Virus record (IMG/VR): IMGVR_UViG_3300036851_000360
Coordinates: 8,181 to 72,180 of that record
From: a virus
Length of the DNA stretch: 64,000 bases
Strand: one strand, 5' to 3'
Position 1 is the stretch's first letter, and the number at the start of each line of letters is the position of its first letter. The notes below the pieces were generated by a model, which was given only the letters and a program-made list of their open reading frames with translations, did no database searches and was not told where the DNA came from. The position numbers and the translations under genes are program-made. Shown here in pieces: positions 20,151 through 43,996 of the stretch.

Positions 20151-20842
20151 ACCGGGCCCGGCACCGGCTGCAACTGTGGACCCGGAACCGGATGGTGATG
20201 CTCGCCGTCGCCGCCACGGCGGTGCTGTTCATCGTCGCCGCGTCAGTGTGGGCCCAGCTCGGGCAGCAGGCCGCGCAGCAGCAGACCGGGGTAGTGGAAC
20301 AGCAGCGCGACCAGGCGACCGAGCAACGAGACGACGCCGCCGCGCAGGCCGTGTCCCTCGCCGAGCAGATCAAGGCGGCGTGCGGGGACGGGTCCCTGTC
20401 AGGGGCAGTGTGTGAGCAGGCGGAGCAAGTCGCTGCAACACCCGTCCCTGGACCGGTTGGACCCCAAGGCGTCCCCGGGGCGTCTGGGCAACCCGGGACA
20501 GCCGGCGAGCCCGGCGCGGCTGGACCTGCTGGACCGACCGGGACGGCTGGCGACCCGGGGGCTACTGGCCCTGCCGGGCCCGCCGGCACGGATGGCCGGG
20601 ATGGTGTGGACGGCGCGGATGGTGTCGACGGGCAGGATGGCGAGCCTGGTCCAGCTGGCCCGGCAGGTCCACAAGGACCGACTGGCGAGCCTGGAGAGGA
20701 CGGCCAGGACGGCGACGACGGGCCCCAAGGCCCACCCGGTGAGCCGCCAGCCTCCTACACGATGACCATCCTTGGGATCACGTACACGTGCACCCGCACC
20801 GGCGGGGACAACACCTCGCCCACATACACCTGCTCGACCTGA
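20147..20842 (+). CDS. Membrane-anchored collagen-like protein
   Basis: Transmembrane segment, long Gly-X-Y run, C-terminal YTC...YTC. Confidence 0.8.
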
Positions 20843-20887
20843 GCAGCTCTGATCCTTGCAGTTCAACGTCACCTTCTGGGAGACACC

Positions 20888-21586
20888 TTGAAGAAGATCG
20901 TCGTACCCGCTGCTGCCCTCGCGCTGTCTCTTATGACAGTTGGCGCGGGCCTGGCGCAGGCGGCGGAGCCGGCCAACTGCGCCGACGCCATAACCGCTCT
21001 CCAGCGCGCCGACTCGGACCACCGCGCTGCTGTCGCCGCGGACGACAAGGCCGCCGCGGCGGAGAAGGCCGTCGACGACCTCGAGCGGGCAGAGGATCGG
21101 CTCGCGGACGCCGAGCGGGATCTGGCGGCTGCGCGGGACACGCTCACGCGGGCCAAGGACCGTCTCGCCGATCTGAAGAAGCCCGGCGATGGCCCTGACG
21201 ACAACACCACTCAGGAGCCGGGTGAGACCATCGGGAGCGAGCAGCAGATCGCCGACGCGCAGTCCGCTGTCGACGCCGCGGAGGACAAGGTCGATGACCT
21301 CACCGTCGTGCGCAACGACCGCCTGGAGGAGCGCAACGACGCTGTCGATCTGGAGAACGACGGCGACGCCGACGACCTGCAGGACGAGGCCGACAAGACC
21401 GACGCCGCCGCGCTGAAGAAGGCGGTCGACGAGGCGCGGGACGACTTCAACCGGATCTGCATCGACGAGGACGACCCCACCGACGACGTCACTACGACGC
21501 CCGCCACCCCGACGCCGGCGCCTGACGTGGACGTCACCGTCGTGACCCCCCGCGGGGGCGTGGCCACCGGCGGCGGTCCTGCGTGA
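20888..21586 (+). CDS. Secreted coiled-coil protein, probable class F sortase substrate
   Basis: Signal peptide ending AQA; T/P linker; C-terminal PRGGVATGGG. Confidence 0.7.
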   Translation: MKKIVVPAAALALSLMTVGAGLAQAAEPANCADAITALQRADSDHRAAVAADDKAAAAEKAVDDLERAEDRLADAERDLAAARDTLTRAKDRLADLKKPGDGPDDNTTQEPGETIGSEQQIADAQSAVDAAEDKVDDLTVVRNDRLEERNDAVDLENDGDADDLQDEADKTDAAALKKAVDEARDDFNRICIDEDDPTDDVTTTPATPTPAPDVDVTVVTPRGGVATGGGPA

Positions 21587-26656: not shown

Positions 26657-27070
26657 ATGGCGGAGACAGCGCAGATACCTGCCTGGGTGGCGGTCACCCC
26701 CCGGGCGGTTGTCGACTGCCACTGGATCGCCCACCAGGTAGCCGCCGAGGTCGGCAGGGCGTCCGTCCACGGTGAGGTGTGCTCGATCCTCGACTGGGTC
26801 ACCACAGACCTCCCCGACGAGGCCGCTGTTCATGCGCGGGTGGTAGGCGACGACACCAGCACTCTCGCGTGGCTCCTCGGGTTCACCCCCGTCCCGCCGA
26901 TCGAGCTGCCCCGACGCAACCCCGACGGCACCGTCGTGACAGTCGAGCAGGTCACGGCTGAGCTGCTGGTCGGGAAGACGGGGATGCCGGAGCAGCGCAT
27001 CGCCGCCGAGAACCAGGCCCACCGCCAGGTCGCCCGGTGGCGGCGTCTCGCGTCCCTGGTGCCGCACTAG
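26657..27070 (+). CDS. Hypothetical protein
   Basis: Divergent from the 26568 gene; 'LAWLLG...PPIELPRRNPDG'. Confidence 0.55.
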   Translation: MAETAQIPAWVAVTPRAVVDCHWIAHQVAAEVGRASVHGEVCSILDWVTTDLPDEAAVHARVVGDDTSTLAWLLGFTPVPPIELPRRNPDGTVVTVEQVTAELLVGKTGMPEQRIAAENQAHRQVARWRRLASLVPH

Positions 27071-27399
27071 CGCCTCACTCGTGCGGCACCAGCGTCTTCG
27101 GCGGGTGCAGGTGTCCACTCCGCCGGCCGCTGCTCCGGGATCCGCGGCAACCCCGGGAAGTCGCCTTCCCGCGATCTGGCCCACTCGTCCCGGTCCCCGT
27201 ACGGCGGGTACCGCACCTTCTGCAGCTCCGTGTACTCGCCGGGCAGTTCGTGGGTGCGGTGGTACTGGCCGCCGGCGTAGTCGTCGTAGGACTGCATCCG
27301 GTCCGAGCGGAGCTCGAGTGCCAACCGGGCGGCGACGACGAGTTCATGGTCGTGGGGGAGCTGCGACAGCTTCAGCCCCAGGTCTGCGGCGTCACTCAT
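27067..27399 (-). CDS. Hypothetical protein downstream of relaxase
   Basis: ATGA overlap with the relaxase stop. Confidence 0.6.
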   Translation of the reverse strand: MSDAADLGLKLSQLPHDHELVVAARLALELRSDRMQSYDDYAGGQYHRTHELPGEYTELQKVRYPPYGDRDEWARSREGDFPGLPRIPEQRPAEWTPAPAEDAGAARVRR

Positions 27400-30300
27400 G
27401 CCCGTTCCCTCACTCGTGCCTGCTCGTCTGCCATCTCGGGTGCGGCCAGCCACCGGGTTTGCCGTTCGGCCTCTTCCTCCGCCGCCCGCATCTCGTCGGC
27501 GCGGTCACGGTCGGTGCGCTCAAGGAGGGACTCGCGGGCTCGTCTCACCGAGTCCGCCACCGCATCCGCTGCCGGCACTTCCCGCCGGATGCGTGGGTCG
27601 TGTTCCGTCGGATCCGCGATCGCAACGTCGCGGATGTCCGCCACAGCTGTCTCGAGGGGCTTCCGCGGCACGGGCAGTTCATGGACGTGCTCGCCGACGA
27701 GATCTTCCTCGTGGATCGGGCGGCGTTCATCGTCGGCGACCCGGTCGGCTTCCTCCGCCGCCAACCACTCCGCCATCGTGGTCCGATCCTCTGGGCGGGC
27801 CAGGTCAACTTCGCGGCGCGCCAACTCCGCCTTGGCACGCTCACCCGAATCACGGGTGCCGGCGGTGTGGAGGAACCACGCGGTCCGCTCCTTGTCTGCG
27901 ACCTCAAGGTTGAGCTTCAACTGTTCGAGCTGTGCCGCTTCCTGTTCAGCCTTGACTGCCGCCTCGAGGACCCCCCGCTTCTCGTCGCCTTCGAGGGTTT
28001 CGGCGTGCGCCCGCCACAACCCGACCTGGTTTCGACGGTCCGCCAACTGCTCGGAGGTGGCCGCGAGTTCGTCCGCGACATAGCGGGGGGCCCACAGCTG
28101 TTCCCGTTCCCATGCCGCGGCCCGGGCGAGAAGCTGCCCGTCGGACTGCATCGCCTCCTCCGGCCCGACATCCGGCAGGCCGAGAGCGTCGTGGGCGGTC
28201 GCCCAGATCGCGCGCTTCTCCGCCAGCCCTGCGGCGGGGGCAGGGCCGAGCGGGTCATGCTCGTCCGTGTACTCGGCGCCCTCCCGGGACGCGGCTGCCC
28301 AACCGGCGCGGGACTCCCACACCGCCCGCCGTAGCGGATCCTCCGGGACCGGCCCCAGTGTCTCCATCGCCCAGGGTGGACGTTCCTCCGCCACCCTTGC
28401 GCCGAGCTCGTGACGCCGCTCATCAGCCTTGTCGGCTTGTTTCTCAAGCCAACCGCGCCACACGTCGCTCACCCCGGCGGGGATGAGGTCCCGGTAGGAG
28501 GTGATCCGCGGGATCTGTTTCCCGAGGGTGTTGCGGATGCGGGCGTGCAGCACCTGCGCTGCTCTCTCAGCGCCAGCCAGGGACTTCCCTTCCAGCGCGT
28601 CGCGGAGCACGCCCTCGGGGTTGTGGCCAGAAACCTCCGCGTTGCGGAGGAGTCGCTCCACAGCGCTCATCGCCTGGTCCGCGGCCAGCGCCTCACGTTG
28701 TTCAGGGGTGATGACGCCTTCCGCGGCGAGCCGATCCAGGCGGGTTGAGGTCGCGCCGGCGGTGGCCTCGTTGATCCCAACGAGTAGCCGGTCGACGTTG
28801 CGGAAGGTGGACTGCTCGTCCTCGATGGCCTGCTCGCGCTGGGCGATCGCCCCCCGTTCCTCCTCGGCGTTCTTGAATGAGTCCGCGAGGACAGCCTTTG
28901 CGGTGCGACCCTCGACCTCCTGCGCTTCCCCGACGGGCGCGTCGGAGGCCAGCTGCTTGGTGGTGACCCACGCTGTGTTCGACTCCCGGCCGCGTGTCAT
29001 CCCCACGTAGGTGCCGGTGAGGTCGTGCCCGGTGTCGACGGTGCGGCCCTGTGCGGCGTGCAGGGTGGAGGCGTAGGCGAGGGACAGGTGCTTCTCGACG
29101 TAGCTGGCGCTCAGAGTTAGCGCGACCCCCTTGCTGGTCTCCACCCGCAGTGCCCCGTCGGCGAGGAAATGAGTCACCCGGTACGTCTGCCGGTTGATCA
29201 ACGGGAGAGGGTTACGGCCGAGGCGCCAACTGTTCTTTCGTGCCTGCACAAGGTCGCCGATCCCGGCGATGTTGCCGTCTTTGCCGAGACGTACACCGCG
29301 TTCGGACACCTTCCCCAACCGGACGAGCTCGGCCCGGAGCTGGGCGTTCACCTGGGCGGCCTGGTCGTTGCTGCGGACCAACAGCAGGGACTTTTTCCCT
29401 GCGAGGGTGTCCGCCAGCCACGCCTGCCCTGCCTTGTGCTCGGCCTGTTCGGTTGTGCCGCAGCCACGCAACCGGCCGTGCTTGTCGTACTCGTCGAGGG
29501 CTGCGACATTCCCTTCACGCCACAGCAGCGACGCCGTGCGTTCCCACTCCTCCTGGAACCGCCACACCTGCGTCAGCTCGTAGGACCGTGCCGTGCGACG
29601 GAGATCAGCGAACACCCCACCGGCCTCGACTGAACGCATCTGCCGTGCGTCGCCGACTGGCAGGAGTTTCGCCCCAACCTCCTCGCACCGCTGCACCAGA
29701 TCGGCCATGTCCCGGGTGGATGCCATCCCCGCCTCGTCCACCACGACCAGGTCACCGGCTCGCAGTTGTAGGGAGTCGTCGTTCTCGACCGCGAGGCGCC
29801 ACCGGTCGAAGTTGAACGACTCCACCCCCTCTTCAGCCATGACGTCGGCGGCGTTCTGCGAGGCGGCCAGCCCGAACGTGCGGCGGCCATGTTCGGCCCA
29901 CGCGCCCGCGATCAGCCCGACAGTTGTCGACTTGCCAGTACCGGCGGCAGCGGAGATGGTTTCCACGTAGGCGCCGGAGGTGAGGACGCCGCAGATCGCG
30001 GCCTCCTTGTCCGCCCCCAACGTCTCGTCCGCCGCCTCGTTGTAGCGGCGGATGAACGCATCCACCTGCGCCTGGCTCAGCTTCGCCGCCCCAGTCCTGA
30101 CAGCTGCCTGCTCAGCGATCCGCTCCTCGGCGATCTGCCCGACTGTGGCGAACTGGGCGGAACCGGGACGCTGGAACGCGGACAGATCACCGGCCAACCG
30201 GAACTCGGCTGGCAGGCCGTCAACCGACTCTTTGGCGACAACGACCTTGGCTTCGGCGAGGGCCTTGTCGGCGAGCCGCTCCAACATCGCGGGGATGTCA

Positions 30301-31619
30301 CCGGCGGGGACACCGAGGTTCGCGGGGAGCGCACCCGAGATCGCGAAGATCAGATCGGAGCGGGTCCACACGTGCTCGTTTTTCCCGACTTCCCACAACG
30401 CCGCCTTGATCACCTGAGAGGGGGAGACTTCATCCGCCCGCCCTTGCCCCTTCAGCGCGAGGACGTCGTGGGCGACCTGCTCCAACCCGCCCACCATCTT
30501 CGTGCGGGCCTCACGCTCCCACCGGTCCAACCGCTGTTCCGCGGTCTCCCCGGTGTGCGACTTCCCCTTCCTCGTCAACAGGGTGGCGCGTTCGGCGATG
30601 TACTGCCGCTCCAACGGCGACACGGACCGGCCGTGCTGCTCCTCGTACTCGCGGATCAACTGCTCCGTCTTCGCGGTGACCGCGTGGGACCGCTTCGAAA
30701 ACAGGTCCATGAGCTGCTGCGGCACACCCGCGATCTCGCGGATGATCCCGTCCTTGCGGGCGTCGCGGGTCACAAACCGGACCCCCAACGTGCGGGCGAG
30801 CTCGGCCTCCATGACCCGCTCACCCACCGCGGCGGCAGCCCACTTGTGCAGCGTCAACGCCGCCCCGTCGACCCGGCCCCACTTCCCATCAGCGCGTTCG
30901 TGAACGTTCAGGATCGCCTGGTGCACATGCAGCTGTGGATCCCGCTCCCGGGAGTCGTGCTGCAGGAACTGGGCGACGATGAACCCCTTCTGCTCCATCC
31001 AGCGACCCGCACCGGAGGAGTGGTTCCCAACCCGGGCGTACGCGTTCGCCTCGAGGTAGTCGACACTTGCCGACGCGCCAGCCATCGCTGCGCCCTCAAC
31101 CGCGCTGAGCATGGCCCGCCACGATGCCGCCTCCTGATGACGTCCTGCACCAGCGGCGACGTTCATCGCCCGCTCGAAGGCGACCGCCAGGAGGGTCACG
31201 GACTTCGGGACCGAGAAGGTGGCATCCCAGAACGCCACCGCCTGCCGCGACTCCCGCTCCGCCGCAGCCTGAAGTTCGGCTCGCCGCTCCGGGCCCGCAT
31301 CGGGCTCCTTCGCGAGCGCCTCTTTGTAAATCTCGTCCGGTGACCGGTAGCGGCGGTGGGCGGGAGCCAACGCCCGCGCCTCCGCCCACATCTCCCGGTG
31401 ATGGGTGGCCTCGTCGCGAGGGTCGAGCAGACGGGCGTAGATCGCCTCCATCAGATCGGAGTTGACCTCGCCCGCCAGCCCGAGAGCCTGGGCGCCCCGC
31501 CCATGCCAGCCGCCGGGCGGTTCACCCGCGGCTACGGCACCCGTGTAGTAGCCCTCCCGCCCGGTCGACACCGGTCCGGTCAGGTACCCCACCGAGTAGC
31601 CCTTGGTCACCTTGAACAC
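27396..31619 (-). CDS. mobF: MOBF (TrwC-like) conjugative relaxase with RecD-like helicase domain
   Basis: N-terminal Tyr residues (GYL, GYY), 'DATFSVPKSV', HUH 'HDSR..DPQLHVH', 'FSKRS', Walker A 'AAGTGKS', 'DEAGM', 'VGD.RQ', 'AYASTLHAAQGRTVD'. Confidence 0.95.
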   Translation of the reverse strand: MFKVTKGYSVGYLTGPVSTGREGYYTGAVAAGEPPGGWHGRGAQALGLAGEVNSDLMEAIYARLLDPRDEATHHREMWAEARALAPAHRRYRSPDEIYKEALAKEPDAGPERRAELQAAAERESRQAVAFWDATFSVPKSVTLLAVAFERAMNVAAGAGRHQEAASWRAMLSAVEGAAMAGASASVDYLEANAYARVGNHSSGAGRWMEQKGFIVAQFLQHDSRERDPQLHVHQAILNVHERADGKWGRVDGAALTLHKWAAAAVGERVMEAELARTLGVRFVTRDARKDGIIREIAGVPQQLMDLFSKRSHAVTAKTEQLIREYEEQHGRSVSPLERQYIAERATLLTRKGKSHTGETAEQRLDRWEREARTKMVGGLEQVAHDVLALKGQGRADEVSPSQVIKAALWEVGKNEHVWTRSDLIFAISGALPANLGVPAGDIPAMLERLADKALAEAKVVVAKESVDGLPAEFRLAGDLSAFQRPGSAQFATVGQIAEERIAEQAAVRTGAAKLSQAQVDAFIRRYNEAADETLGADKEAAICGVLTSGAYVETISAAAGTGKSTTVGLIAGAWAEHGRRTFGLAASQNAADVMAEEGVESFNFDRWRLAVENDDSLQLRAGDLVVVDEAGMASTRDMADLVQRCEEVGAKLLPVGDARQMRSVEAGGVFADLRRTARSYELTQVWRFQEEWERTASLLWREGNVAALDEYDKHGRLRGCGTTEQAEHKAGQAWLADTLAGKKSLLLVRSNDQAAQVNAQLRAELVRLGKVSERGVRLGKDGNIAGIGDLVQARKNSWRLGRNPLPLINRQTYRVTHFLADGALRVETSKGVALTLSASYVEKHLSLAYASTLHAAQGRTVDTGHDLTGTYVGMTRGRESNTAWVTTKQLASDAPVGEAQEVEGRTAKAVLADSFKNAEEERGAIAQREQAIEDEQSTFRNVDRLLVGINEATAGATSTRLDRLAAEGVITPEQREALAADQAMSAVERLLRNAEVSGHNPEGVLRDALEGKSLAGAERAAQVLHARIRNTLGKQIPRITSYRDLIPAGVSDVWRGWLEKQADKADERRHELGARVAEERPPWAMETLGPVPEDPLRRAVWESRAGWAAASREGAEYTDEHDPLGPAPAAGLAEKRAIWATAHDALGLPDVGPEEAMQSDGQLLARAAAWEREQLWAPRYVADELAATSEQLADRRNQVGLWRAHAETLEGDEKRGVLEAAVKAEQEAAQLEQLKLNLEVADKERTAWFLHTAGTRDSGERAKAELARREVDLARPEDRTTMAEWLAAEEADRVADDERRPIHEEDLVGEHVHELPVPRKPLETAVADIRDVAIADPTEHDPRIRREVPAADAVADSVRRARESLLERTDRDRADEMRAAEEEAERQTRWLAAPEMADEQARVRERA

Positions 31620-31625
31620 TACGGT

Positions 31626-31826
31626 TCAGCTCCGCACCCGCGCGTACTGCTGCAGCCGGGCGTTCGGGGTCGCGTCGAACGTCCACGACGCCGGCGTGAG
31701 CAGCTCGCACACGTTGGCGATCGCCGCCCGGGCGGCCTGCCGCGCCATGTCGGTGCGGTAACCCATCGGGTGGGTTTGCGCCCCCCACGAGTTCGGCACC
31801 CCCCACCGCACGTATCCGTTGTCCAT
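31626..31826 (-). CDS. Hypothetical protein
   Basis: Coupled ORF just upstream of the relaxase. Confidence 0.45.
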   Translation of the reverse strand: MDNGYVRWGVPNSWGAQTHPMGYRTDMARQAARAAIANVCELLTPASWTFDATPNARLQQYARVRS

Positions 31827-32086
31827 CAGCGGGCCCGCCCGTCGGTGTTGTCCGGGCAGGCGGGCAGCCAAGAGATGACCTGCTCGGCGGTCAGGCCGAC
31901 CCGCTCAAGGGCAGCGAAATCGGCAGCGTCAGGGGTCTCGACGAAGTCGCCATACACGGCATGCCGTTGGATTCGGCCCTTCGCGTCGCCTGCGTCCGCC
32001 CACGCCCAGTTGAGTTCCTGCTCGGCGATCCGCTCGGCCCGCTCCTCGGCGGTGAGTTCGTCGTCAGGGTGGAAGTTCTCGGTCAT
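31826..32086 (-). CDS. Hypothetical protein
   Basis: ATGA overlap; acidic. Confidence 0.55.
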   Translation of the reverse strand: MTENFHPDDELTAEERAERIAEQELNWAWADAGDAKGRIQRHAVYGDFVETPDAADFAALERVGLTAEQVISWLPACPDNTDGRAR

Positions 32087-32343
32087 CGGGCCCGTCCTTC
32101 CTCGGCGGGCTGGCCGCGGTACTCGATCCACGAGGCCGTGCCGTACGGGTTCTCCGTGATCCAGTTGGCGCTGGCGTTTGCCAGCGCGTCGTCACGGTCG
32201 GCGCCGCGGATCCCGTCGTCGTGGCTGGTGCCGTTCGGCCAGTGCACGGTCACGTCGTGCCAGGGCTGGCCCTGCTGGGCCTGCCGTTCGGCGTAGGCCG
32301 CCTCGATCTCGGCCGCGATCTGCGGATCGGTCAGGTCTGCCAT
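32083..32343 (-). CDS. Hypothetical protein
   Basis: AGGAAGG RBS; first gene after the low-GC intergenic region. Confidence 0.6.
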   Translation of the reverse strand: MADLTDPQIAAEIEAAYAERQAQQGQPWHDVTVHWPNGTSHDDGIRGADRDDALANASANWITENPYGTASWIEYRGQPAEEGRAR

Positions 32344-32344
32344 G

Positions 32345-32510
32345 TGGATCTTCCTTCCTGTGTCGTTCACACCGCTGGATTGGCCAATGCATCGGTGTGG
32401 CTTCCTTCTTTGAGCTGTTATGGGATCTTGGGGACGTGTGGTGATCTTGAGTAGATGGATCTTGTGAGGTGAGTGGATCTAGATAGATAGAGATCGGTTA
32501 GAGGTTGTTC
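32345..32510. promoter_or_regulatory. Low-GC intergenic region with GATCT repeats; candidate oriT or promoter
   Basis: GGATCTT/GATCTTG/GGATCTAG recur; lies between coupling-protein and relaxase gene blocks. Confidence 0.35.
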
Positions 32511-33190
32511 TATGGCCTGCGGAGCTTGAGTTCTCGGTGCTTGCGTGCGTCCTCGAGCTGCTCGTCGGTAGGCGCCGGCGGGAGGCCGGTGGTGCTCCAC
32601 GCTTCGGCGACCGCATGGATGTGGCCGGCAAGCGGCGCCGCGAGGGGCTCCTTAGCTGCCTGACCTGCTGGTTTGTGGTCCTGAAGGCTGCACGACCCGA
32701 GGTGTTTGCGGACCCGCTCGACCAGGCGCGGCATGGACTGGTCGTGCCACATGCCCTGCGCTACCGGGTCGTCCTGCGACCCGTACGCCTTCGCGTGGTA
32801 CCGGCGCAGCCACAGGAGCTCTTCGATCAGCCAGGGGTGCCAGGCCCAGCAGGAGGGCAGTTCGTTCCCGGGATACCGCAGGTAGACGGCGTTCAGCCAC
32901 GTCTCGAGGTCGCGCAGACGCTCGTCAAGTTTCTCGGGGTCTTCACCGACCTGCAGTAGCCACGCCCGTCCGTCGTCCTTCCCTCCTGGCGCGAGGAGGG
33001 CGACGAGGCCTTCCTCGAGGTGCCGGAAGGCCTTCCACATCCCCCGGAGTTCGTCGTCCCACCCGCGTGCGTCGCCCAGTTCCTGCAGCCGGCGGGAGTG
33101 CCGGTCGAGCTCCCGCCCGATCGTCTGGGCGTCGAGCGGCTGGGTGGGCTCCTCGGGTGGGGGTCCTGCGGGAGGGTCAGTGGGTGGCAT
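32510..33190 (-). CDS. Conjugation-associated hypothetical protein (DUF4913-like)
   Basis: 'L..WL..VY...LPSCW.WHP...EEL.WL' motif; directly after the coupling protein. Confidence 0.6.
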   Translation of the reverse strand: MPPTDPPAGPPPEEPTQPLDAQTIGRELDRHSRRLQELGDARGWDDELRGMWKAFRHLEEGLVALLAPGGKDDGRAWLLQVGEDPEKLDERLRDLETWLNAVYLRYPGNELPSCWAWHPWLIEELLWLRRYHAKAYGSQDDPVAQGMWHDQSMPRLVERVRKHLGSCSLQDHKPAGQAAKEPLAAPLAGHIHAVAEAWSTTGLPPAPTDEQLEDARKHRELKLRRP

Positions 33191-35021
33191 TGGTCAGCTC
33201 CCGGTCGGGTGCGGCACCCACGGGTACAGGTGTCTGTGGGTGGGTGGGTGCTGGGAGGTCGATGGGTGCGGGTGCCGGGAGCGCAACGGGGTGGGTGACC
33301 AGGTGGGTGGGAGATGGCCGGGAGAACACCCGGCGGGCACCCACACCCACGAGGCGGGTGAGAACCGATGGGTGTCGCTTCCACACGGGGATGACCCGCC
33401 CGATCACGATGGGCATGTCGCCCGTGTAGACGATGGCCTTCCACTTCGGGAGGCTCGCCAGTTGTCCCACGGACAGCACAGGCGCTTTGCGCACGGACGT
33501 GGAGGTGATGTCGCCGTCGCCGTTGCGGGTGACGACGGTTTCGTCGCGGTCGCCGGCGAGGTCGGAGAAGGCCTTCAGGCCACCGACGGCTTTGTTGCCG
33601 CCGATGTACATGAGCACGTTGGAGTTGTTGATGAGCCGCTCGGCTCCGGCCTCGCCGTACTTCGCGATCATGTCGGCGTAGGACTGGAACACCGGCATCA
33701 GCTGGATGCCGGAGCCGCCGAAGTCTCCGGACCAGTCGGGCAGCGGGACGGGGCAGACCCGGGCGGCCTCGTCGAGCGGGAACCGGATCGGCGGGTCGAG
33801 CCGCCCCCGGCACGCCCCCTCAAACGACGGCAGCGCTGCGAGACGGCGGGCTTCGCGGGCGATATACCCGGTCAGCGCTTGCAGCAGCGGAGCAGTGTTC
33901 GCCTCATGCCTGCCCAACAAATACACGGTGCCCTTGCCGCGGATCAGTTCGGCAACGTTGAACGGGGCGGCCCCCTTGGTGGAGGCGGCCGCCGCCGGCG
34001 AGTGGAGCCACTGCAGTGCGGGCAAGATCCCGGTGGTGATGCTCGAGCGGGTGGTCGGGTTCAGGCCGATGAACTGATCGACGGCGGGCCGGAACGACGG
34101 GACCGGGGACGCCTGGAGAAGTTCATGTACCTCATCGCCGATGTGGTCGGGATTCGCGACCCAGCGGAGGATGTCGTGGCAGTCCCGGGTGCCCTCGGAC
34201 AGGCCGGCGGCGTGGAGGAACGCGGCGAACACCCGCCGGGACTGGGCATCCCAGTCCGCCGAGTCTCCGCGTACACCCTCCCGCTCGGGGATCATGTCTG
34301 CGGCCCGGTCGATCGCCACCGTGGGGTCGTCGCACCCGTGGACGGGGTCGAAGCTGATCGTGGAGTCGACTTCACCCACCCAGGCCGGGTTGTACACCCA
34401 GATGGGACCCGTCTTCGCCCGCAGCTCCCGGGTCTGGTCGTAGAGGTCGGTGCGGGTGGAGGTGGTGACTACGGCCCCGGGGGCGTCGATGACGGGGGTT
34501 CCGAGGAGGGCGGTCTTGCCTCGGCGGGGGCCCGCGACGATGAGTACGACGTCTTCGGCCGAAGCCCACACCCGCATCCCGGCCGCCCGACACAGCAGCA
34601 CACCCAGCTCCCGGGTGGGTGTGCGCCACCGCTTCACCCACCCGGCATCCCGTAGGTGCGGGCGGACAGCGCGGGCCTTGCGGTGCATCGCCCACCAGGA
34701 GGTGCCGCGGGCGACCTGTAAGGGGGTGGCGACGCCCGAGCGCCGGCGGGCCTTCTCGCCCCACCGGGTGACGGTGCGGGCCGTCCCGCCGCGCCACCAC
34801 ACCACCCCCGCCACGCAGGCGACGCCTGCAATGGTGAGGACACCGGCGAGGGTGAGAGCCCCATGGCTCATGTACAGCCACGCGGAGACGCCGACACCGC
34901 CGCCGATGCCGACCTTGCGGGAACTGCCGGCCAGACCGCGCTTGAGCTTGCGGATCCAGTCGCCCACGAAGATGGCGGCGGCCACACCTGCGGTGACGAG
35001 GACGACGAACTCGGCGGTCAC
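33177..35021 (-). CDS. Type IV coupling protein (VirD4/TraD/TraG-like)
   Basis: N-terminal transmembrane segments; 'GPRRGKT', 'GAVVTTSTRTD', 'FDP..GC', 'GTVYLLG', 'LDEAA..CP.PLP.W..D.GG.GI', 'QS'. Confidence 0.9.
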   Translation of the reverse strand: MTAEFVVLVTAGVAAAIFVGDWIRKLKRGLAGSSRKVGIGGGVGVSAWLYMSHGALTLAGVLTIAGVACVAGVVWWRGGTARTVTRWGEKARRRSGVATPLQVARGTSWWAMHRKARAVRPHLRDAGWVKRWRTPTRELGVLLCRAAGMRVWASAEDVVLIVAGPRRGKTALLGTPVIDAPGAVVTTSTRTDLYDQTRELRAKTGPIWVYNPAWVGEVDSTISFDPVHGCDDPTVAIDRAADMIPEREGVRGDSADWDAQSRRVFAAFLHAAGLSEGTRDCHDILRWVANPDHIGDEVHELLQASPVPSFRPAVDQFIGLNPTTRSSITTGILPALQWLHSPAAAASTKGAAPFNVAELIRGKGTVYLLGRHEANTAPLLQALTGYIAREARRLAALPSFEGACRGRLDPPIRFPLDEAARVCPVPLPDWSGDFGGSGIQLMPVFQSYADMIAKYGEAGAERLINNSNVLMYIGGNKAVGGLKAFSDLAGDRDETVVTRNGDGDITSTSVRKAPVLSVGQLASLPKWKAIVYTGDMPIVIGRVIPVWKRHPSVLTRLVGVGARRVFSRPSPTHLVTHPVALPAPAPIDLPAPTHPQTPVPVGAAPDRELTNATH

Positions 35022-35272
35022 GACCGCGCCCCTGCCCGCTGGCTGTAGGTGTGGCGCAACTCCAGGGACGTCCCGAACGCGCAGATGAGCGCGAAGATCC
35101 ATGACTGCGGTGTCGCGTAGACGAGGACCGCACCCAGCGCGAGCGTGGACGCCCCCATGAACCCGGCGCTGAGGGCGCCTGCCGGGATGCTGATCCAGCT
35201 ACGGGTGGTCACCCGGGAGATGACGGAGAGGCCGACCGACAGAGCGAAGTACGAGAGCAGAAGGCTGATCAT
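35018..35272 (-). CDS. Small membrane protein
   Basis: About three hydrophobic segments; overlap-coupled. Confidence 0.65.
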   Translation of the reverse strand: MISLLLSYFALSVGLSVISRVTTRSWISIPAGALSAGFMGASTLALGAVLVYATPQSWIFALICAFGTSLELRHTYSQRAGARS

Positions 35273-36180
35273 GCGGGCTGGTGTCCGTTCACGGAGAGGC
35301 TCTTCACGAGCTGCTTGGCGGTGTGCTCGGTGACGCCGAGCTTCTTCTGGAGGACGACACGACCGGCACCACCGGCGATGAGTTCGCGGGCCTTGTCGAG
35401 GTCAATGTCCCGTGGGGGTGCGACCGGACCTCGTGACGAGGTCTCCTTGCCTCGCGACGAAGTACCATCCGGTGTCGTCGTAGCCCGGGGTGCGGTCTGC
35501 CAGCGCAGCGACAGGCCGTTGTCGTCGACCTGGGAGAGATCGGGAACGACGACGTCCTCAACCCGCTCGAGCGCGGGGACGTCGACCCGGCCAACGGTGT
35601 GAGCGTCCTGTCGCCGTGCCCGCTCGACCCGGTACGACTCCCATGCTTCACGCGGGTCGGTGATGCCCTGGTCGATGGACCAGCGGCGGGCACCCAACGT
35701 GCGCCACGGGAAGTGCCGCCACCGCTCGGCCGAGAACAGGGCCCCGGTGTCGTCGAGGCGGCCTTCGACGCTCAGCTGAATGTGGTGGGCGCGGCGGGTG
35801 TGCAAGCCCCACAGCCAGGGGCTGGACAGGGAGAACAGGGCGAACATGACCGCTGCCGGGCTGGGTGCCCAGCCGGTGGAGAAGTGGCTGTAGTTGACGG
35901 CGGCGGCCACACCTGCGAGGAGGTAGGACCAGCGCCGATACTTGGCGGCGGTGGCGGTGTCCTTCCGTAGGAGGGCGTCGTGGGCGTGCCACTGCACGTA
36001 CAGGGAGATGGATTCGAACGCCGCCGCAGCCCCGCCGGCGATGACCACTGTCAGCGGGAACCAGTCCTGTCGGAACGCGTCGAGCCCGAACTGGAACTGG
36101 CCGTAGACGGCGAAGCAGGTGACGAGGGAGATTGGGGCGACGGTCCGCCAGGTCACGTCGTCGCTACGGCTGGTGTCCAT
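35269..36180 (-). CDS. Multi-TM membrane protein (DUF2637/Spd-like)
   Basis: Four N-terminal transmembrane segments, 'NYSH', 'RW..FP..T..ARR..I', C-terminal HTH-like tail. Confidence 0.6.
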   Translation of the reverse strand: MDTSRSDDVTWRTVAPISLVTCFAVYGQFQFGLDAFRQDWFPLTVVIAGGAAAAFESISLYVQWHAHDALLRKDTATAAKYRRWSYLLAGVAAAVNYSHFSTGWAPSPAAVMFALFSLSSPWLWGLHTRRAHHIQLSVEGRLDDTGALFSAERWRHFPWRTLGARRWSIDQGITDPREAWESYRVERARRQDAHTVGRVDVPALERVEDVVVPDLSQVDDNGLSLRWQTAPRATTTPDGTSSRGKETSSRGPVAPPRDIDLDKARELIAGGAGRVVLQKKLGVTEHTAKQLVKSLSVNGHQPA

Positions 36181-36473
36181 CAGGACCGGCCGTCCCTACC
36201 CCGGCCGACCCGCCGCGGGATGATGAACGCCAGGTTGACCAGGGCGATCACGAACCCCAGCAGGCCCACGGTGAACACGAACTGGGCGGCCCCGGTGGTC
36301 AGCCACAGCTCGCGCATCGGAATGCCAACCACCACGGCGGCGACAGGTGCGCCGGGGAACAGCCACAGCCCGGACTCCTTGAAGTCGGAGTGCCGTGGGG
36401 GCAGGTCGAGCCGAGGCAGCGGCTGGGTGGGCTGCTCTGAGCGGGGGGCAGCCTCGTGGGCTGGGGCGCTCAT
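36180..36473 (-). CDS. Small two-TM membrane protein
   Basis: Two hydrophobic segments; coupled. Confidence 0.55.
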   Translation of the reverse strand: MSAPAHEAAPRSEQPTQPLPRLDLPPRHSDFKESGLWLFPGAPVAAVVVGIPMRELWLTTGAAQFVFTVGLLGFVIALVNLAFIIPRRVGRGRDGRS

Positions 36474-36688
36474 CGGGCCCACCCCTCGACCACGTCGGCG
36501 GCCTCGGCCTCCCACGTGGCGTCCAACCCGTCTCGGGCGAACTGCGAGAGGCCCCCGTCGTAGTGCCGCTCGACACCGCGCAGGATCTCCGTGTCGGACA
36601 TCTCCAGGATGTCCTCGGGGTTTTCCTTCCAGCTGCAGTCGAGGACCCAGTCGCGGGCGGCCTGAACGAACTCGGGGTGGCTGCTCAT
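36470..36688 (-). CDS. Hypothetical protein
   Basis: 'ARDWVLDC.W...VERHYDGGL..F'; ATGA overlaps. Confidence 0.6.
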   Translation of the reverse strand: MSSHPEFVQAARDWVLDCSWKENPEDILEMSDTEILRGVERHYDGGLSQFARDGLDATWEAEAADVVEGWAR

Positions 36689-36984
36689 CGGGCCCGCCCC
36701 TCGGCGAACCGGCCGGTGGTGAACACGGCGGCCTGCGCGTCCCACGCCTGGTGGGGGTGTTCGACCTGGGCGTGTTCTCGGATCGTGGCCTGATTGCGCT
36801 GGCCTGCGATGGCCGCCAGGCGGTCGTAAAACTGGCTGAGGGTCGCGAAGTACGGGCGGCCGAGGTCGGCTCGGCTACGGTCGGCATGCCAGGCATCGCC
36901 GCGGGTGCCGAGGTCGCGCCACAGGTCGGTGAGGGACCTGCTGTCCGGCGTGGTGCCGGTATCGGGTGGGCTGTCAGACTGCAC
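36685..36984 (-). CDS. Hypothetical protein
   Basis: AAGGA RBS; coupled. Confidence 0.5.
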   Translation of the reverse strand: MQSDSPPDTGTTPDSRSLTDLWRDLGTRGDAWHADRSRADLGRPYFATLSQFYDRLAAIAGQRNQATIREHAQVEHPHQAWDAQAAVFTTGRFAEGRAR

Positions 36985-37234
36985 GTGCCTGTTCCTTCCT
37001 GGGAGGTTGGTTCGGGTAGGGCCCCGGCGGGAGTTGCAGCTCCGTGCCGGGGCCGTCTTCACCGGGCGGCCGCATCCTCAGGTGCTGGTGCGACGGACTT
37101 CCAAATGCTGGCCAGCTGCTGGGCGTCACCCCGCTGATACGCGGCCTCCGCGGAGGCGAACAGTTCGTCCGCGCACGTGAACCGGTGCGACCCGGCAACC
37201 GCCTTGATCCGCGCGAGGAGGGTTTCGAGGTCGG

Positions 37235-37417
37235 TCACCGGGTCACCGCCGTGGGGCGGGCCAGGAACACCGTCACGTCACCGCTGTTGCGGAGCTGCGT
37301 CAGCAACGTCAGCAGGCACACCCAGCAGATCTGGCCGGCGCCGACCTCGTCGACGGTTGGGATGAGGGCACGGTCCCGGCCGGCACGTTTACCGCAGGTG
37401 GAGCAGGTGTTCGCCAT
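37235..37417 (-). CDS. Small Zn-finger protein
   Basis: CxxC...CxxC; GAGGAG RBS. Confidence 0.55.
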   Translation of the reverse strand: MANTCSTCGKRAGRDRALIPTVDEVGAGQICWVCLLTLLTQLRNSGDVTVFLARPTAVTR

Positions 37418-37524
37418 GCCAGGTCTCCTCACTGGGTCAACCGATCGTGTTGCCTACCCTCCCAGATCTGTGCAATCTTTGCAAGGTGTTCGTCCTCTGT
37501 GTGGTGTGTGGGAGGGTTGGGTGG

Positions 37525-38127
37525 ATGACAGATCCACGCCAACTACTCAGCAGCGTCCAGGCCGGCAAAGAGCTAGGCCTAGCTGCGAGCACGCTGTGGC
37601 GCTGGCACCACAGCGGGAAAATTCGAGCCGACTTCGTGACACCCGGCAAGCACCTGCGCTGGGACGTCGACCGGCTCAGGCGCTTCCTCGCCAACCCCGA
37701 CATGGAGGAACTGAACGTGCCCGAGCCGGCCTCGAACCCAGAGCACCCGTCTGTCGTCGCCGCGATCGTCACCTCACATCTCGGCGTCCTCGCGGGACGG
37801 CGCAACGACGGCAGGCCGCCATGGACGTTCATCGCCGGCGAGATCGAACCTGGCGAGTCGCAGATAGACGCCGCCGTGCGAGAGGTTAAAGAGGAAACGG
37901 GGCTGCTTGTCCGGGCCGGGCATCACGAGATCGGCCGACGGGTGCACCCGAAGACCCGCCGCACGATGATCTACCTGGCGTGCACCCCGACGCATGGCAC
38001 CGACGTGTTCGTCGGCGACGAGGACGAGCTCGCCGAGGTGCGGTGGCTGTCGCTCGAGGAGGCGGACGAGCTGCTGCCGGGGATGTTCGAGCCGGTCCGC
38101 GAGCACCTCGGCCGGGTCATCTCCTGA
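37525..38127 (+). CDS. MerR/Xis-like HTH fused to NUDIX hydrolase
   Basis: 'ELGLAASTLWRW...TPGKHLRW'; Nudix box GEIEPGESQIDAAVREVKEETG. Confidence 0.85.
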   Translation: MTDPRQLLSSVQAGKELGLAASTLWRWHHSGKIRADFVTPGKHLRWDVDRLRRFLANPDMEELNVPEPASNPEHPSVVAAIVTSHLGVLAGRRNDGRPPWTFIAGEIEPGESQIDAAVREVKEETGLLVRAGHHEIGRRVHPKTRRTMIYLACTPTHGTDVFVGDEDELAEVRWLSLEEADELLPGMFEPVREHLGRVIS

Positions 38128-39287: not shown

Positions 39288-40775
39288 GTGTCCGACTCGT
39301 ACAGGCCGAGGCCGCGCGCAGGGCAGTACCTGCGCGTCAGCCTGGACCGCTCCGGCCGTGCCCGGTCCGTCGACGAACAGCAAGTTGACAACGAGCGGGC
39401 CGCCGGCGAGCACGGATGGGAGATCGTCGCCAACTACGCCGACCCCAACCGGTCCGCAAGCCGATACGCAACGAAGCTGCGGGAGAACTACCTGCGCCTG
39501 CTCGAGGACATCCGCAAGCGCGAGCTTGACGTCCTGATCATTTGGGAGCCGTCGCGCGGATCCCGCAAGGTGTCGGAGTGGGTGGAGCTCATCGAGGTCG
39601 CCGAGACAGCGGCGGTCAAGTTCCACGTCACGTCCCACGGACGTACCTACGACCCTGCGAGGCCACGTGACCGGCGCTCTCTCCTCGAGGATGCTGTCGA
39701 CTCTGAGTATGAGTCGGGGAAGAACTCGGAGAGGGTGAAACGCTCGACCGCTGCCTCGGCCGAGGCAGGCCGCCCGTTCGGGTCGATCCCCTTTGGGTAC
39801 CGGCGGGAGTACGAGGCTGGGTCGACCAGCCCGACCGCACAGGTCCCCGACCCTGAGACAGCCCCTGTCGTCCAGGAGATTGTCGCCCGCATCCTGGCGG
39901 GCGACCCGCTGCACCGGATCGCGATGGATTTGAACCGACGGGGTGTGTTGACACCGCAGATGGTCCGCGACCGCCGTCTCGGGCGTGAGGGTGTGCGCCG
40001 GGGTGGCTGGAACAACCCGAAGATTCGGAAGTTGTTGTCGTCGCCGACGATGGCGGGGTGGCGGGTTCATCAGGGCGAGGTGTTCGGCCCGGCGATGTGG
40101 AAGCCGCTCGTCGCTCCGGCGGACCACGCGGCCGCGCTGGCGATCATCAACGATCCGAGCCGGCGGACGCAGCGGGGGACGGAGCCGAAGTTCCTGCTGT
40201 CGGGGATCGCGGAGTGTGGGGTGTGCGGCGGCTGGTTGCGCCGCTTTCCCAACCGTGGGCACCAGTCGTACGGCTGCGCGGGACGGAACAACCAGAACGA
40301 CGGACATGTGGTGCGCCGCGCGGAGCATCTCGACGCGATGGTGGTGAAACGTGTCGTGGAGCGTCTGCGGGACCCGGGCCTGGCGGAGGGGCTGGCGCGG
40401 CGGAGAGCAGCGGCGGATGAGTCCGCTGCGGAGGCGGCGCGGGAGCTGGCGGCTCTGCACAGGCAGCTCGCCGACTACGAGGTGAAGGCGCAGCAGGGCG
40501 GCGTGTTGGCGGCCTCGTTCGAGCGGGTCGCGCTGGGAATCGCTCAGCAGATCGAGGCCGCGCGGGCGCGTCTGGTGACGTCGGCGGTTGTCCCAGCGGG
40601 CGTACTGGATTTGGCCGGCCCGGATGCCGCCGTACGGTGGGCGGCCATCCAGGACGACATTGTGAAGCAGCGTCTCATTGTGCGTTCGCTCGTGCAGGTG
40701 ATTGTGCATCGGTCGAATGCGCCGCGTGGGTCGCGGGTGTTTGACGAGTCGTCGGTCGAGATCGTGGATCGTTAG
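39288..40775 (+). CDS. int: Large serine recombinase (integrase)
   Basis: 'YLRVS', 'SASR', 'SR.SR', 'PFGY', Zn ribbon 'LLSGIAECGVCG', coiled coil. Confidence 0.95.
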   Translation: MSDSYRPRPRAGQYLRVSLDRSGRARSVDEQQVDNERAAGEHGWEIVANYADPNRSASRYATKLRENYLRLLEDIRKRELDVLIIWEPSRGSRKVSEWVELIEVAETAAVKFHVTSHGRTYDPARPRDRRSLLEDAVDSEYESGKNSERVKRSTAASAEAGRPFGSIPFGYRREYEAGSTSPTAQVPDPETAPVVQEIVARILAGDPLHRIAMDLNRRGVLTPQMVRDRRLGREGVRRGGWNNPKIRKLLSSPTMAGWRVHQGEVFGPAMWKPLVAPADHAAALAIINDPSRRTQRGTEPKFLLSGIAECGVCGGWLRRFPNRGHQSYGCAGRNNQNDGHVVRRAEHLDAMVVKRVVERLRDPGLAEGLARRRAAADESAAEAARELAALHRQLADYEVKAQQGGVLAASFERVALGIAQQIEAARARLVTSAVVPAGVLDLAGPDAAVRWAAIQDDIVKQRLIVRSLVQVIVHRSNAPRGSRVFDESSVEIVDR

Positions 40776-42317: not shown

Positions 42318-43996
42318 GTGATCGTCGATCCCACGATACCTGCCCGACCGGATGATCAGGCTGGCCGGCATCGAGTTCGCCGTGGCGCCACGTGCCCCGA
42401 CACGGGTCGCATCGTCGGTAAGACGTTGCCCCAGTTCAGGGCGAAGGCGATCATCCGCCGCAACGAGGGCGACCTTGAGCCGCGCACCCGGCGGGCACGA
42501 TGAGCGGCGCGGGCCACAGCGCATGCGCTGACTACGTCCGCCGCTTCTTCGACGAGCAGGGCATCGAGGTGACCATCGCGACCGTCCCACCACTGGTCGC
42601 CGGGACGTACACCGAGCCAGGCATGACCTGCCCTCACGGCACGACCTACTGGTTCGAGCCGACTGGTGACCAGATCGCGGCGTGGGCTCGGGACGGTGTC
42701 GCATGAGGGCTGGCGGCTGCTATGTCGAGACGTTCGTCGAGGACGACGGCGGATGGGGCTGGCAGTGCTTCGACTGCGAGACCGAAGGTGCCGGGTTCGC
42801 CAACCTCGGGGCAGCTGAGGCGGCTGGTGAGCACCACCGCGTCGAGGTCGCCACCCAGGAGCTCATCGAGGAGGGGGAACTGCCGTGACCACCAAACGCC
42901 GCAACGCGCCGATGCCTGCCCGGCGGATGCGTGAGGCCGTCACTCTGGCTGCTGAGCTGGAGTTGCGTGTGGAGAACCAGCGTCTATGGGAGCAGTTCGT
43001 GGCGTCGACCGCCGACGTGGACTGGCTGCGTGAGGAGCGCGACGAGTGGCGTGCTGCCGCGCACGAGGCTGAGGGTGATGTGGCGGCGCTCCGTCAGATC
43101 CTTTCGGTGCAGAGCGACACGATCGCTGCCCTGCGCGAGCAGCTCGGCACGGCGCACGAGGACGGAGGGCGAGACCGATGAGCGACGAGACTTCAGTCAT
43201 CTACCACGTCATCTCGTACGCCGACTGGGCGAACCTGGGGTGGACGGACTGCTGTCACCGCCTGGTGGCCGAGCTTCCGAAGGACGACGTGTGCGTGCCG
43301 CCGGGGGACCGCGAGCCGGGTGCGATGCGCTGCGACGGAGGGCGAGACCGATGAGCGTGCACCGACCCGAGGTGGTCGCCCAGTGCATCGCACAGGTGCG
43401 GGCCTGGCAGGGCAGTTCGAACGAGGGGCTGGCACCGACCCGGACGCAGTGCGGCGTGCTCGCCGACGAGGTCGAGCGGCAGCGCGCCCCGATCGACTGG
43501 CCGCCCCGGTTCCGCGCCGCCGCGGACGCAGCCAGGGCAGCGGGCTACGTGGACGCCGCCGAGCACTTCCGCGCGCTATCCAACAACGTGGCACTGGACG
43601 TGGTCGAGGCCATCGGGCGCGCGCTGCGCGGAGAGACGTCGTGACCGCCGTCGCTGTCCTTGCCGCCGCTGCGCTGGCTGTGGCTGGCCCGGATCTGGTG
43701 ACGATCGCGGGGGTGCTGCGCGGACGGGTTGGTCATCGGGTGCCGCGTGTGGGGTGGCTGGTCGGTGTCGTTGTCGCCACTCACACCGCTCTGGTTGTTG
43801 CGGGTCTGTCGAGGGGGATGTCGTGATGGACATGTTGTGGGCGGTTTACGGGTTCGGTTGGGTGCCGTGGGTGTTGGTCGCCTGGGTTGCGGTGGCTGTG
43901 GTGGTGGGCCTGGTTGTGGGGCGGATTGTGCGCCGGCGGGACAAGCAGGTGCCGCCGACGGTGCCTCCGTCTTCGGGGGCCGGCGGGCTGCCGTGA
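42318..43996 (+). other. Run of small overlap-coupled early genes (42318-42503, 42500-42706, 42703-42888, 42885-43181, 43178-43354, 43351-43644, 43641-43826, 43826-43996)
   Basis: Consecutive ATGA/GTGA overlaps with RBSs; the last two are hydrophobic. Confidence 0.6.

Follow-up and report, generated by a model that had tools for sequence, protein, structure and literature searches.

A MOBF mobilisation module embedded in a lineage of tailed temperate phages: a phage/mobilisable-element hybrid with plausible conjugative spread

Horizontal spread by phages is treated as a route distinct from that of conjugative or mobilisable elements, and a block of conjugation-type genes in the IMG/VR virus record IMGVR_UViG_3300036851_000360 raises the question of whether one genome could use both. 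The block contains a relaxase and a coupling protein and lies inside a tailed phage; a first-pass annotation, made from the sequence alone, had proposed that the excised prophage may spread both as virions and by conjugation. The window analysed is a 64,000-nt stretch (bases 8181-72180 of the 72,180-bp record), and coordinates prefixed W are positions within it. The record itself is referred to as G0, and the related IMG/VR phage contigs as G1 (69 kb), G2 (55 kb) and G4. On balance, if with limited confidence, we favour the reading that the block is a DNA-processing module of the type found in integrative and mobilisable elements (IMEs) and mobilisable plasmids, that it is a stable, selected part of a temperate siphophage lineage, and that the whole genome conjugates through a pore supplied in trans.

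G0, a soil phage, is a metagenome-derived record of class linear, with a CheckV completeness of 93%. It starts approximately 60 bp upstream of the small terminase gene, giving a virion gene order, and PHROG matches place the small and large terminase, portal, protease, scaffold, major head, major tail, tape measure and large tail proteins in succession. After the tail genes come a collagen-like protein, a secreted acidic protein, a sortase and a weakly supported peptidase, then leftward small genes including a DUF6221 gene, the relaxase block and the serine integrase. Beyond the integrase lie a CI-like helix-turn-helix (HTH) gene (HTH_3, repressor-like) and an early arm, read rightward, that encodes a Prim-Pol/D5 primase-helicase and RusA. 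The structural PHROG set, the serine integrase and the HTH_3 repressor-like protein identify G0 as a tailed temperate phage (siphovirus-type Caudoviricetes), and the PHROG and early-arm matches confirm that phage genes stand on both sides of the block. The serine integrase was likewise recovered with its three domains (Table 1). The lysis genes proposed at first pass held up less well: the lysin candidate shares a short metallopeptidase-like motif with its G2 counterpart (E 0.005), its Pfam match was sub-threshold and a PDB sequence search with it returned no match. No terminal exact repeats of 10-200 nt were found in the G0 record.

The annotated intact 1407-aa MOBF relaxase-helicase was upheld. 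In Pfam, a TrwC domain (residues 11-372, E 8.5e-47, 160.5 bits against a cutoff of 25) is followed by an AAA_30 domain (residues 534-719, E 6.3e-50, 170 bits), corresponding to a fused SF1B helicase, and the protein passed the NCBIfam MobF equivalog NF041492 with 140.3 bits against a cutoff of 100. MOBF relaxases are marked by one or more catalytic tyrosines near the N-terminus and by an HxDx(n)HxH metal-binding triad. Here Y24/Y25, H221-D222...H231-V-H233 and the GTGKS and VVDEAG motifs were invariant in alignments of 3 and of 16 relatives. Judged by its domain, tyrosines, histidine triad and Walker A/B motifs, the protein is a member of the MOBF class and is predicted to nick a cognate origin of transfer (oriT). 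It has the domain order (TrwC relaxase, then SF1B helicase), tyrosine pair and histidine triad of TrwC (R388) and TraI (F) but is distant from both, with the NCBIfam TraI and TrwC models scoring far under their cutoffs, and its C-terminal ~500 aa have no family assignment. The sole cultured-phage match in a tblastn search of INPHARED was a 'putative relaxase' of Mycobacterium phage Adler (KF981876, KC960489), at 24% identity over 41% of the query (residues 359-932, mostly the helicase part); two unannotated faecal contigs matched as well. By megablast, neither the block nor the structural arm found a counterpart among cultured phages.

The VirD4-like coupling protein was also confirmed, with TraG-D_C at 73.5 bits (cutoff 22) and T4SS-DNA_transf at 53.6 bits (cutoff 20.1); all NCBIfam models of type IV coupling proteins scored below their cutoffs. 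Its start is probably a GTG at position 35021, which would give a protein of 614 aa, and the translation contains two predicted N-terminal transmembrane (TM) segments and GPRRGKT and LDEAA motifs. Its domains, membrane anchor and P-loop are those of a type IV coupling protein (VirD4/TraG/TraD). Gene models of the block were revised using calls based on GC content at third codon positions together with overlapping stop/start junctions, and these junctions bear out the overlap-coupled leftward operon of the first-pass annotation, including its three small genes (66, 86 and 86 aa).

The presence or absence of further conjugation and plasmid functions was determined in the phage records. VirB4-like (AAA_10) and FtsK_SpoIIIE families had no match in G0, G1, G2 or G4, while control genomes were matched, in agreement with the annotated lack of VirB4 and of an FtsK/TraB translocase; the VirB4 family PF03135 was searched in Pseudonocardia hydrocarbonoxydans only, without a match. 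ParB_N and AAA_31 (ParA-type) likewise had no match in the same four phages, with the control genomes matched. A repeat scan of W24000-42000 returned only short, low-identity families and no convincing att-like direct repeats flanking the block, as the first reading had reported. That reading had also found no intact integrase belonging to the block, and the only candidate was a 60-aa C-terminal fragment of a tyrosine recombinase, with stops upstream in the same frame. The fragment was 31% identical to the G1 integrase over 55 aa, and no close relative was found among the integrases of the fetched contexts.

In the parts of the published descriptions cited here, a relaxase and coupling protein without VirB4 denote an IME-type element (PMC3429521, PMC9513070). 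The block resembles a relaxase-bearing IME ('iMOB') in combining a relaxase and a candidate oriT without a VirB4-like ATPase. Unlike IMEs and mobilisable plasmids, it is a module without its own integrase or att site inside a complete tailed-phage genome. Because it has no integrase of its own beyond the 60-aa remnant and no bounding repeats, the block alone is not a stand-alone IME; the integrative unit would be the phage as a whole, by way of its serine integrase. The arrangement also differs from an integrative and conjugative element (ICE) or a phage-ICE tandem, in that there is no VirB4-like ATPase, phage genes lie on both sides and no second intact integrase stands beside the block in G0. 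It differs from a phage-plasmid as well, since a search confined to the ParB_N and AAA_31 families gave no ParA/ParB match and G0 and G1 carry integrases.

Conservation of the block was assessed across the phage lineage. G1 and G2 were first found via block proteins in IMG/VR and are biased to block carriers; a tail-protein alignment search of IMG/VR was run to avoid this bias. It returned five contigs besides G0, of which two, the backbone fragments G005 and G006, are uninformative and end within or ~2.3 kb past the query tail gene. The remaining four of the six reach far enough, and in all four the relaxase is at the same position. Relaxase identity to G0 was 88% for G1 and 67% for G2, the G2 coupling protein was 55% identical, and the tail genes of both phages are shared with G0. 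Compared with G0, G1 has other portal and head families, a tyrosine integrase and another replication initiator, together with the same block, and its contig also has an end at the terminase; the G2 contig ends 2.3 kb past the coupling protein, short of the expected integrase and early region. Since G1 keeps the block despite different head, integrase and replication modules, the block is a stable conserved trait of the lineage that persists across mosaic exchange of other modules. It is no recent insertion, because the relaxase is at the same position in relatives whose other modules have been swapped.

Selection on the block genes bears on whether the block might be an inert or decaying passenger, that is, an IME fragment picked up once, for example by aberrant excision beside the integrase gene. 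The dN/dS of the relaxase was 0.135 (G0-G1, dS 0.55), and the relaxase is therefore under purifying selection; other block genes had values of ~0.27-0.5 for closer pairs and up to 0.80 for the most diverged small genes, and tail genes 0.25-0.69. A passenger would agree with the truncated tyrosine integrase at the block edge, oriented like the integrases of chromosomal modules, and with the position of the block in an accessory region running from the tail and lysis genes to the integrase. It is highly improbable in view of the low relaxase dN/dS, catalytic residues invariant in 16 sequences, a conserved non-coding element and long block ORFs (open reading frames) that are all intact in four phages at 63-88% relaxase identity. 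The integrase remnant, moreover, is not close to any fetched integrase. A recent pick-up by aberrant excision also fits poorly with a block that phages with other integrases share.

The same comparisons bear on a possible artefact, either a chimeric contig or a virus call merging a phage with a neighbouring element. G0 is a metagenomic IMG/VR contig classed 'linear', and provirus calls such as that of contig G009 can take in neighbouring DNA. The same arrangement occurs, on the other hand, in four contigs of different records, with phage genes flanking both sides, contig ends at the terminase and uniform composition, the GC content of the block (0.675-0.706) being the same as in the remainder of the window. 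In a second assembly, of the sole run holding the sequence, W22500-42400 lay in one 39,250-bp contig that spans both borders with 0 differences, although this is probably the same sample and not independent data. Misassembly at the borders, which the first-pass annotation had named as a point that would count against it, left no sign and is very unlikely, and the artefact explanation as a whole is largely refuted, with almost no probability left to it. Read depth is a single figure per contig and cannot rank regions. Candidate read 'joints' were given no weight, as their sides were only 20-21 nt and likely came from other organisms.

To place the relaxase among its relatives, a homologue search scored 8000 candidates, of which 541 proteins reached E <= 1e-30. 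The hits P0001-P0015 (57-94% identity) were all metagenomic; below them identity reached a plateau at ~50%, where the named hits were Pseudonocardia(ceae) MobF relaxases. A FastTree phylogeny with SH-like support was built from 129 rows, for which one of the 120 listed homologues, P0012 (1006 aa), was left out under a 1200-aa lower limit. All seven relaxases of known context (G0, G1, G2, G4 and three more IMG/VR contigs, each contig with a terminase or tape measure gene) fell in one 45-row clade with support 100. None of the 28 named Pseudonocardia(ceae) rows was in this clade and 24 of them were in its 68-row sister clade, so that the phage relaxases form a clade apart from the named chromosomal ones. 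Three of the 38 remaining rows of the phage clade are identical to G2, G4 and G007; in G007 and G008 the relaxase abuts the contig end. Two further contigs, G010 and G011, were set apart as not the same kind of element, with relaxases only 28-30% identical and no coupling protein.

Relatives of the block were found in chromosomes and on a plasmid. P. hydrocarbonoxydans carries three relaxase/coupling-protein modules, one of them also with a detected gene like that for the 226-aa block protein, each ~3-10 kb from a tyrosine-integrase-like gene and with no phage homologue nearby. The best relaxase loci of three other Pseudonocardia genomes show the same gene string, with no homologue of G0, G1 or G2 structural genes in the fetched flanks. 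On the 35-kb Streptomyces tendae plasmid NZ_CP043961, typed as 'mobilizable, MOBF', a DUF2637 protein, a coupling protein, a 204-aa protein and MobF follow in the same order. The string common to the Pseudonocardia modules and this plasmid is a membrane protein, a VirD4-type coupling protein, a protein of ~200 aa, small genes and a MobF relaxase-helicase. Identity to the plasmid is 35% for the coupling protein and ~35% for the relaxase, and the relaxase is 50-54% identical to the Pseudonocardia chromosomal copies. Because the same gene string is present in Pseudonocardia chromosomes and on a Streptomyces plasmid, the block is, judged by its gene content, a standard actinomycete mobilisation module. 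The lineage that carries it is best explained as one of temperate siphophages whose hosts are Pseudonocardiaceae-like actinobacteria.

The candidate oriT is the only sizeable non-coding gap of the operon. By inspection it is AT-rich; its four AAGATC(C) repeats all lie on a single strand, and it closes with an inverted repeat, CACACCG-17 nt-CGGTGTG, at W32368-32399. Architecture and position are the same in G0, G1, G2 and G4, with the invariant cores CTAGATCCAC and CCACACCG..GCAT..ATCC..GGTG. The predicted DNA hairpin had energies of -8.9 and -9.9 kcal/mol on the two strands (z -2.3 and -2.6). The gap separates the coupling-protein operon from the small-gene/relaxase operon, and oriTs are commonly located between such operons. 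None of the three P. hydrocarbonoxydans modules showed the signature (AGATC repeats plus CACACC..GGTG).

The structural part of the original proposal, a phage/mobilisable-element hybrid, is thus supported by a complete-looking phage, the arrangement in four of four informative contigs, selection, a candidate oriT and the lack of a pore. As a mechanism, we suggest that in a lysogen the phage genome would be excised by its own integrase, or be present as a circle. The relaxase would nick the oriT-like site at W32344-32509 and stay on the 5' end while its helicase domain unwinds the strand. The membrane-anchored coupling protein would then hand the complex of relaxase and single-stranded DNA to a mating pore that is not phage-encoded, and the whole ~72-kb genome would pass into a neighbouring cell, be recircularised and integrate through the serine integrase. 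We infer that the pore is supplied in trans, either by another element or by a chromosomal TcpF/VirB4-like cluster.

A candidate resident pore of the latter kind was identified in P. hydrocarbonoxydans. The cluster G003:C35:91286-97760 (G003 being this genome) has a TcpF/VirB4-like AAA_10 ATPase (984 aa), followed by a polytopic membrane protein of ~635 aa, a 202-aa membrane-anchored protein and an NlpC/P60 hydrolase. The best NCBIfam matches of the ATPase were conjugal-transfer ATPases (TcpF, E 1.6e-27), and the family was above the Pfam cutoff in 37 of 41 Pseudonocardia genomes (35 of 39 if the unpublished G035 and G048 are set aside). From these matches, the cluster is a candidate resident pore for the phage module. 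It leads to a stronger form of the proposal, in which the phages are dual-mode elements whose ~72-kb genome is sent by their own oriT, relaxase and coupling protein through a T4SS-like (type IV secretion system) host-chromosomal pore with no helper, and in which the relaxase clade has long diversified with phages, to ~48% identity. We put this forward tentatively, as possible rather than probable. On contig C57 of the same genome, a 712-aa protein of the FtsK_SpoIIIE family (Pfam E 6.3e-10) is encoded ~1 kb away from a chromosomal module's tyrosine integrase, and this may be a neighbouring TraB-type actinomycete element.

Several points weigh against conjugation of the phage through such a pore. 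Nicking and transfer by the relaxase, and the presence of the block in packaged DNA, are predictions from sequence, and W32344-32509 is a candidate oriT by position and form only; its hairpin is modest (z about -2.5) and the right arm is degenerate in G4. The pore-cluster ATPase scored 95.8 bits against a TcpF cutoff of 1100, the cluster lies among housekeeping genes, its two membrane proteins match no family, and it may serve another function. None of the four top-scoring Pseudonocardia contexts that were fetched contained a G0-type prophage. The bias-free tail-protein search gave few informative contigs, and 35 of the 45 rows of the phage clade are without known context. In the provirus call G009 the terminase is broken and the module lies at the very edge, and there the phage link could be a boundary artefact.

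An alternative that needs no external pore is that the module works by itself as a minimal conjugation machine of mycelial actinomycetes, with the coupling protein, the DUF2637/SpdB-like protein and the small membrane proteins as the translocon. The occurrence of the same string without VirB4 on the 35-kb Streptomyces plasmid, and in several copies per Pseudonocardia genome, would fit such a machine, as would the SpdB_N 'spread'-protein clusters among the atlas neighbours of the 303-aa block protein. A single FtsK-like translocase can suffice in actinomycete TraB systems, according to the cited part of PMC3429521. We nevertheless consider self-sufficiency quite unlikely: no precedent for VirD4-only transfer of single-stranded DNA was found in the literature searched, the SpdB and DUF2637 links are atlas leads with scores of 0.88-0.91, and the VirB4-like cluster present in nearly all of the Pseudonocardia chromosomes (37/41) is a simpler source of a pore.

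The module may also have been co-opted for another role in the phage, such as rolling-circle initiation or strand processing, or interference with or exclusion of plasmids and ICEs. Relaxases are HUH endonucleases, kin to rolling-circle Rep proteins. Co-option would be consistent with this kinship, with a module kept under selection in phages that have no pore genes and with the lack of a recognised replication gene on the 55-kb G2 contig, although that contig stops 2.3 kb past the coupling protein, before the early region. G0 (Prim-Pol/D5) and G1 (a replication initiation protein), by contrast, have separate replication modules, and the TraG-D_C membrane-anchored coupling protein, like the string as a whole, is what transfer modules on plasmids and chromosomes contain. 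Co-option is unlikely on these grounds.

No description of a relaxase/coupling-protein module inside a tailed phage was found in the literature searched, which did not cover subscription journals. To judge from the part of the work cited here, the phage-ICE tandem (Huang et al., Sci Adv 2026, PMC13651849), in which a prophage genome is likewise movable by conjugation, comes nearest among published concepts. That report describes 612 tandems from seven phyla and, for Streptococcus, an experimental 'conduction' of the phage-ICE circles after excision. The tandems there consist of two adjacent elements with their own integrases and a complete ICE (virB4, virD4 and a MOBP1 relaxase), 'rather than a hybrid element'. 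Unlike those tandems, the module described here is a pore-less MOBF module embedded between the tail/lysis genes and the integrase and inherited with the phage lineage, and it is this embedded, pore-less, phage-inherited state that is new relative to the portion cited.

Phage-plasmids and P1-derived plasmids also mix phage and plasmid functions (Pfeifer & Rocha 2024, PMC10879196; Ares-Arroyo et al. 2022, PMC10123127). According to the passages cited from these surveys, relaxases and oriTs are essentially absent from phage-type elements, with a relaxase or oriT present in some P1 derivatives (PMC10879196, PMC10123127). Unlike the phage-plasmids in those passages, the phage gene set here looks complete, the element is integrative, and ParA/ParB were not found in the families searched.

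If the reading is true, conjugation would provide a second, non-lytic and receptor-independent way to spread lysogeny, and would affect how phage host range, prophage distribution and the 'mobilisable' and 'viral' classes of metagenomic sequences are read. In the cited portion of PMC13651849, conjugative prophage movement is shown only beside complete ICEs. The lineage offers a testable system for whether a phage can be moved by its own conjugative DNA-processing genes: its genes are defined, and both a candidate oriT of 166 bp and a candidate pore on the chromosome can be named.

Table 1. Features of the mobilisation block and the adjoining integrase region, with positions in the window
Feature	Position (W)	Strand	Evidence
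136-aa gene, convergent with the relaxase operon	26660..27070	+	blastp 77% to G1_042, 48% to G2_050; no NCBIfam family
111-aa gene directly downstream of the relaxase	27067..27402	-	79% to G1_041; no family
MOBF (TrwC/TraI-type) relaxase-helicase, 1407 aa, intact	27396..31619	-	Pfam TrwC, AAA_30; NCBIfam MobF
Three small coupled genes (66, 86, 86 aa) between candidate oriT and relaxase	31626..32343	-	overlapping stop/start junctions; no families
Non-coding gap, candidate oriT, 166 bp	32344..32509	-	four AAGATC(C) direct repeats, then inverted repeat
226-aa protein, coupled to the coupling protein	32510..33190	-	no Pfam/NCBIfam match
VirD4/TraG-type type IV coupling protein, 641-aa ORF	33177..35102	-	Pfam TraG-D_C, T4SS-DNA_transf
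84-aa membrane protein, two predicted TM segments	35018..35272	-	hydropathy scan; stop overlaps coupling-protein start
303-aa protein, hydrophobic N-terminal half, HTH-like C-terminus	35269..36180	-	DUF2637/SpdB-like by atlas lead only
97-aa membrane protein, two predicted TM segments	36180..36473	-	start set by ATGA junction
Four small genes heading the leftward operon (72, ~70-125, 59, 65 aa; 65-aa Cys-rich)	36470..37432	-	no families
Divergent HTH-NUDIX gene	37447..38127	+	Pfam NUDIX E 5.5e-19; 70% to G1_033
Tyrosine recombinase C-terminal remnant, 60 aa	38998..39180	-	Pfam Phage_integrase E 6.1e-9, profile positions 130-169 of 172
Large serine integrase of the phage	39288..40775	+	Resolvase + Recombinase + Zn_ribbon_recom

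Among the other block genes, the claim of three membrane proteins stood for the 97-aa and 84-aa proteins. The former was obtained by resolving a 238-aa ORF into the two-TM protein and a 72-aa protein (W36470-36688). The 303-aa protein was not flagged as membrane-spanning by the hydropathy scan at its threshold; it had no Pfam or NCBIfam match and no BLAST similarity to the plasmid DUF2637 protein. Inspection suggests a membrane nature for it, as do its atlas neighbours, 23 of the 30 nearest clusters having DUF2637 on 15-20% of members and lower-ranked clusters having SpdB_N plus HTH.

The DUF4913-like label given to the 226-aa protein was not sustained. No match to Pfam PF16259 (DUF4913) was found at E <= 0.01 and none to NCBIfam, while atlas neighbours carried DUF4913 on 13-21% of members (score 0.90), and the protein is possibly a distant DUF4913 relative at most. 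It was 66% identical in G1, 49% in G2 and 32-39% in a Pseudonocardia module, with weak similarity (E 0.001) to its positional equivalent on the Streptomyces plasmid. For the divergent HTH-NUDIX gene, the NUDIX domain was confirmed and the HTH_17 match was sub-threshold (19.5 bits against 27). The 66-aa small protein is 70% identical to G1_039, the 111-aa gene has its probable start at ATG 27402 (the longest ORF extends to 27453), and the 136-aa gene stays beside the relaxase in G0, G1 and G2.

Several of the block's small acidic ORFs share the ending G(R/W)AR* (W32086, W36473 and W36688, minus strand), which recurs in G2 and G4, and the ORF that follows starts at an overlapping ATGA preceded by GAGG..GGGCCC. 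The pattern could be a conserved translational-coupling junction, or a conserved C-terminal peptide of a small paralogous family.

At the integrase border, the truncated tyrosine recombinase stands back-to-back with the serine integrase, separated by a 107-bp spacer (within W38998-39287). The spacer contains the inverted repeats CCTGACC...GGTCAGG and GTGAAC...GTTCAC, which could be the attP of the serine integrase.

Further observations concern the phage arm outside the block. Two very large tail ORFs of 1421 and 1305 aa (W8541-16724) lie in one frame with a single stop between them; their G2 homologues overlap in different frames, so the in-frame layout is not conserved. Between the tail genes and the lysin candidate, W20147-22230 encodes a collagen-like/proline-rich TM protein, a secreted acidic coiled-coil protein with the C-terminus GGVATGGGPA and a sortase (Pfam Sortase E 2.4e-16). 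This trio is kept in G2 (35198-37499), including the C-terminal motif, and might, speculatively, form a surface adhesin aiding cell contact. The DUF6221 gene (Pfam E 5.5e-29) is common to G0 (W25711-26142), G1 (20556-21137) and G2 (43024-43572), with differences in orientation and in the side of the block on which it lies.

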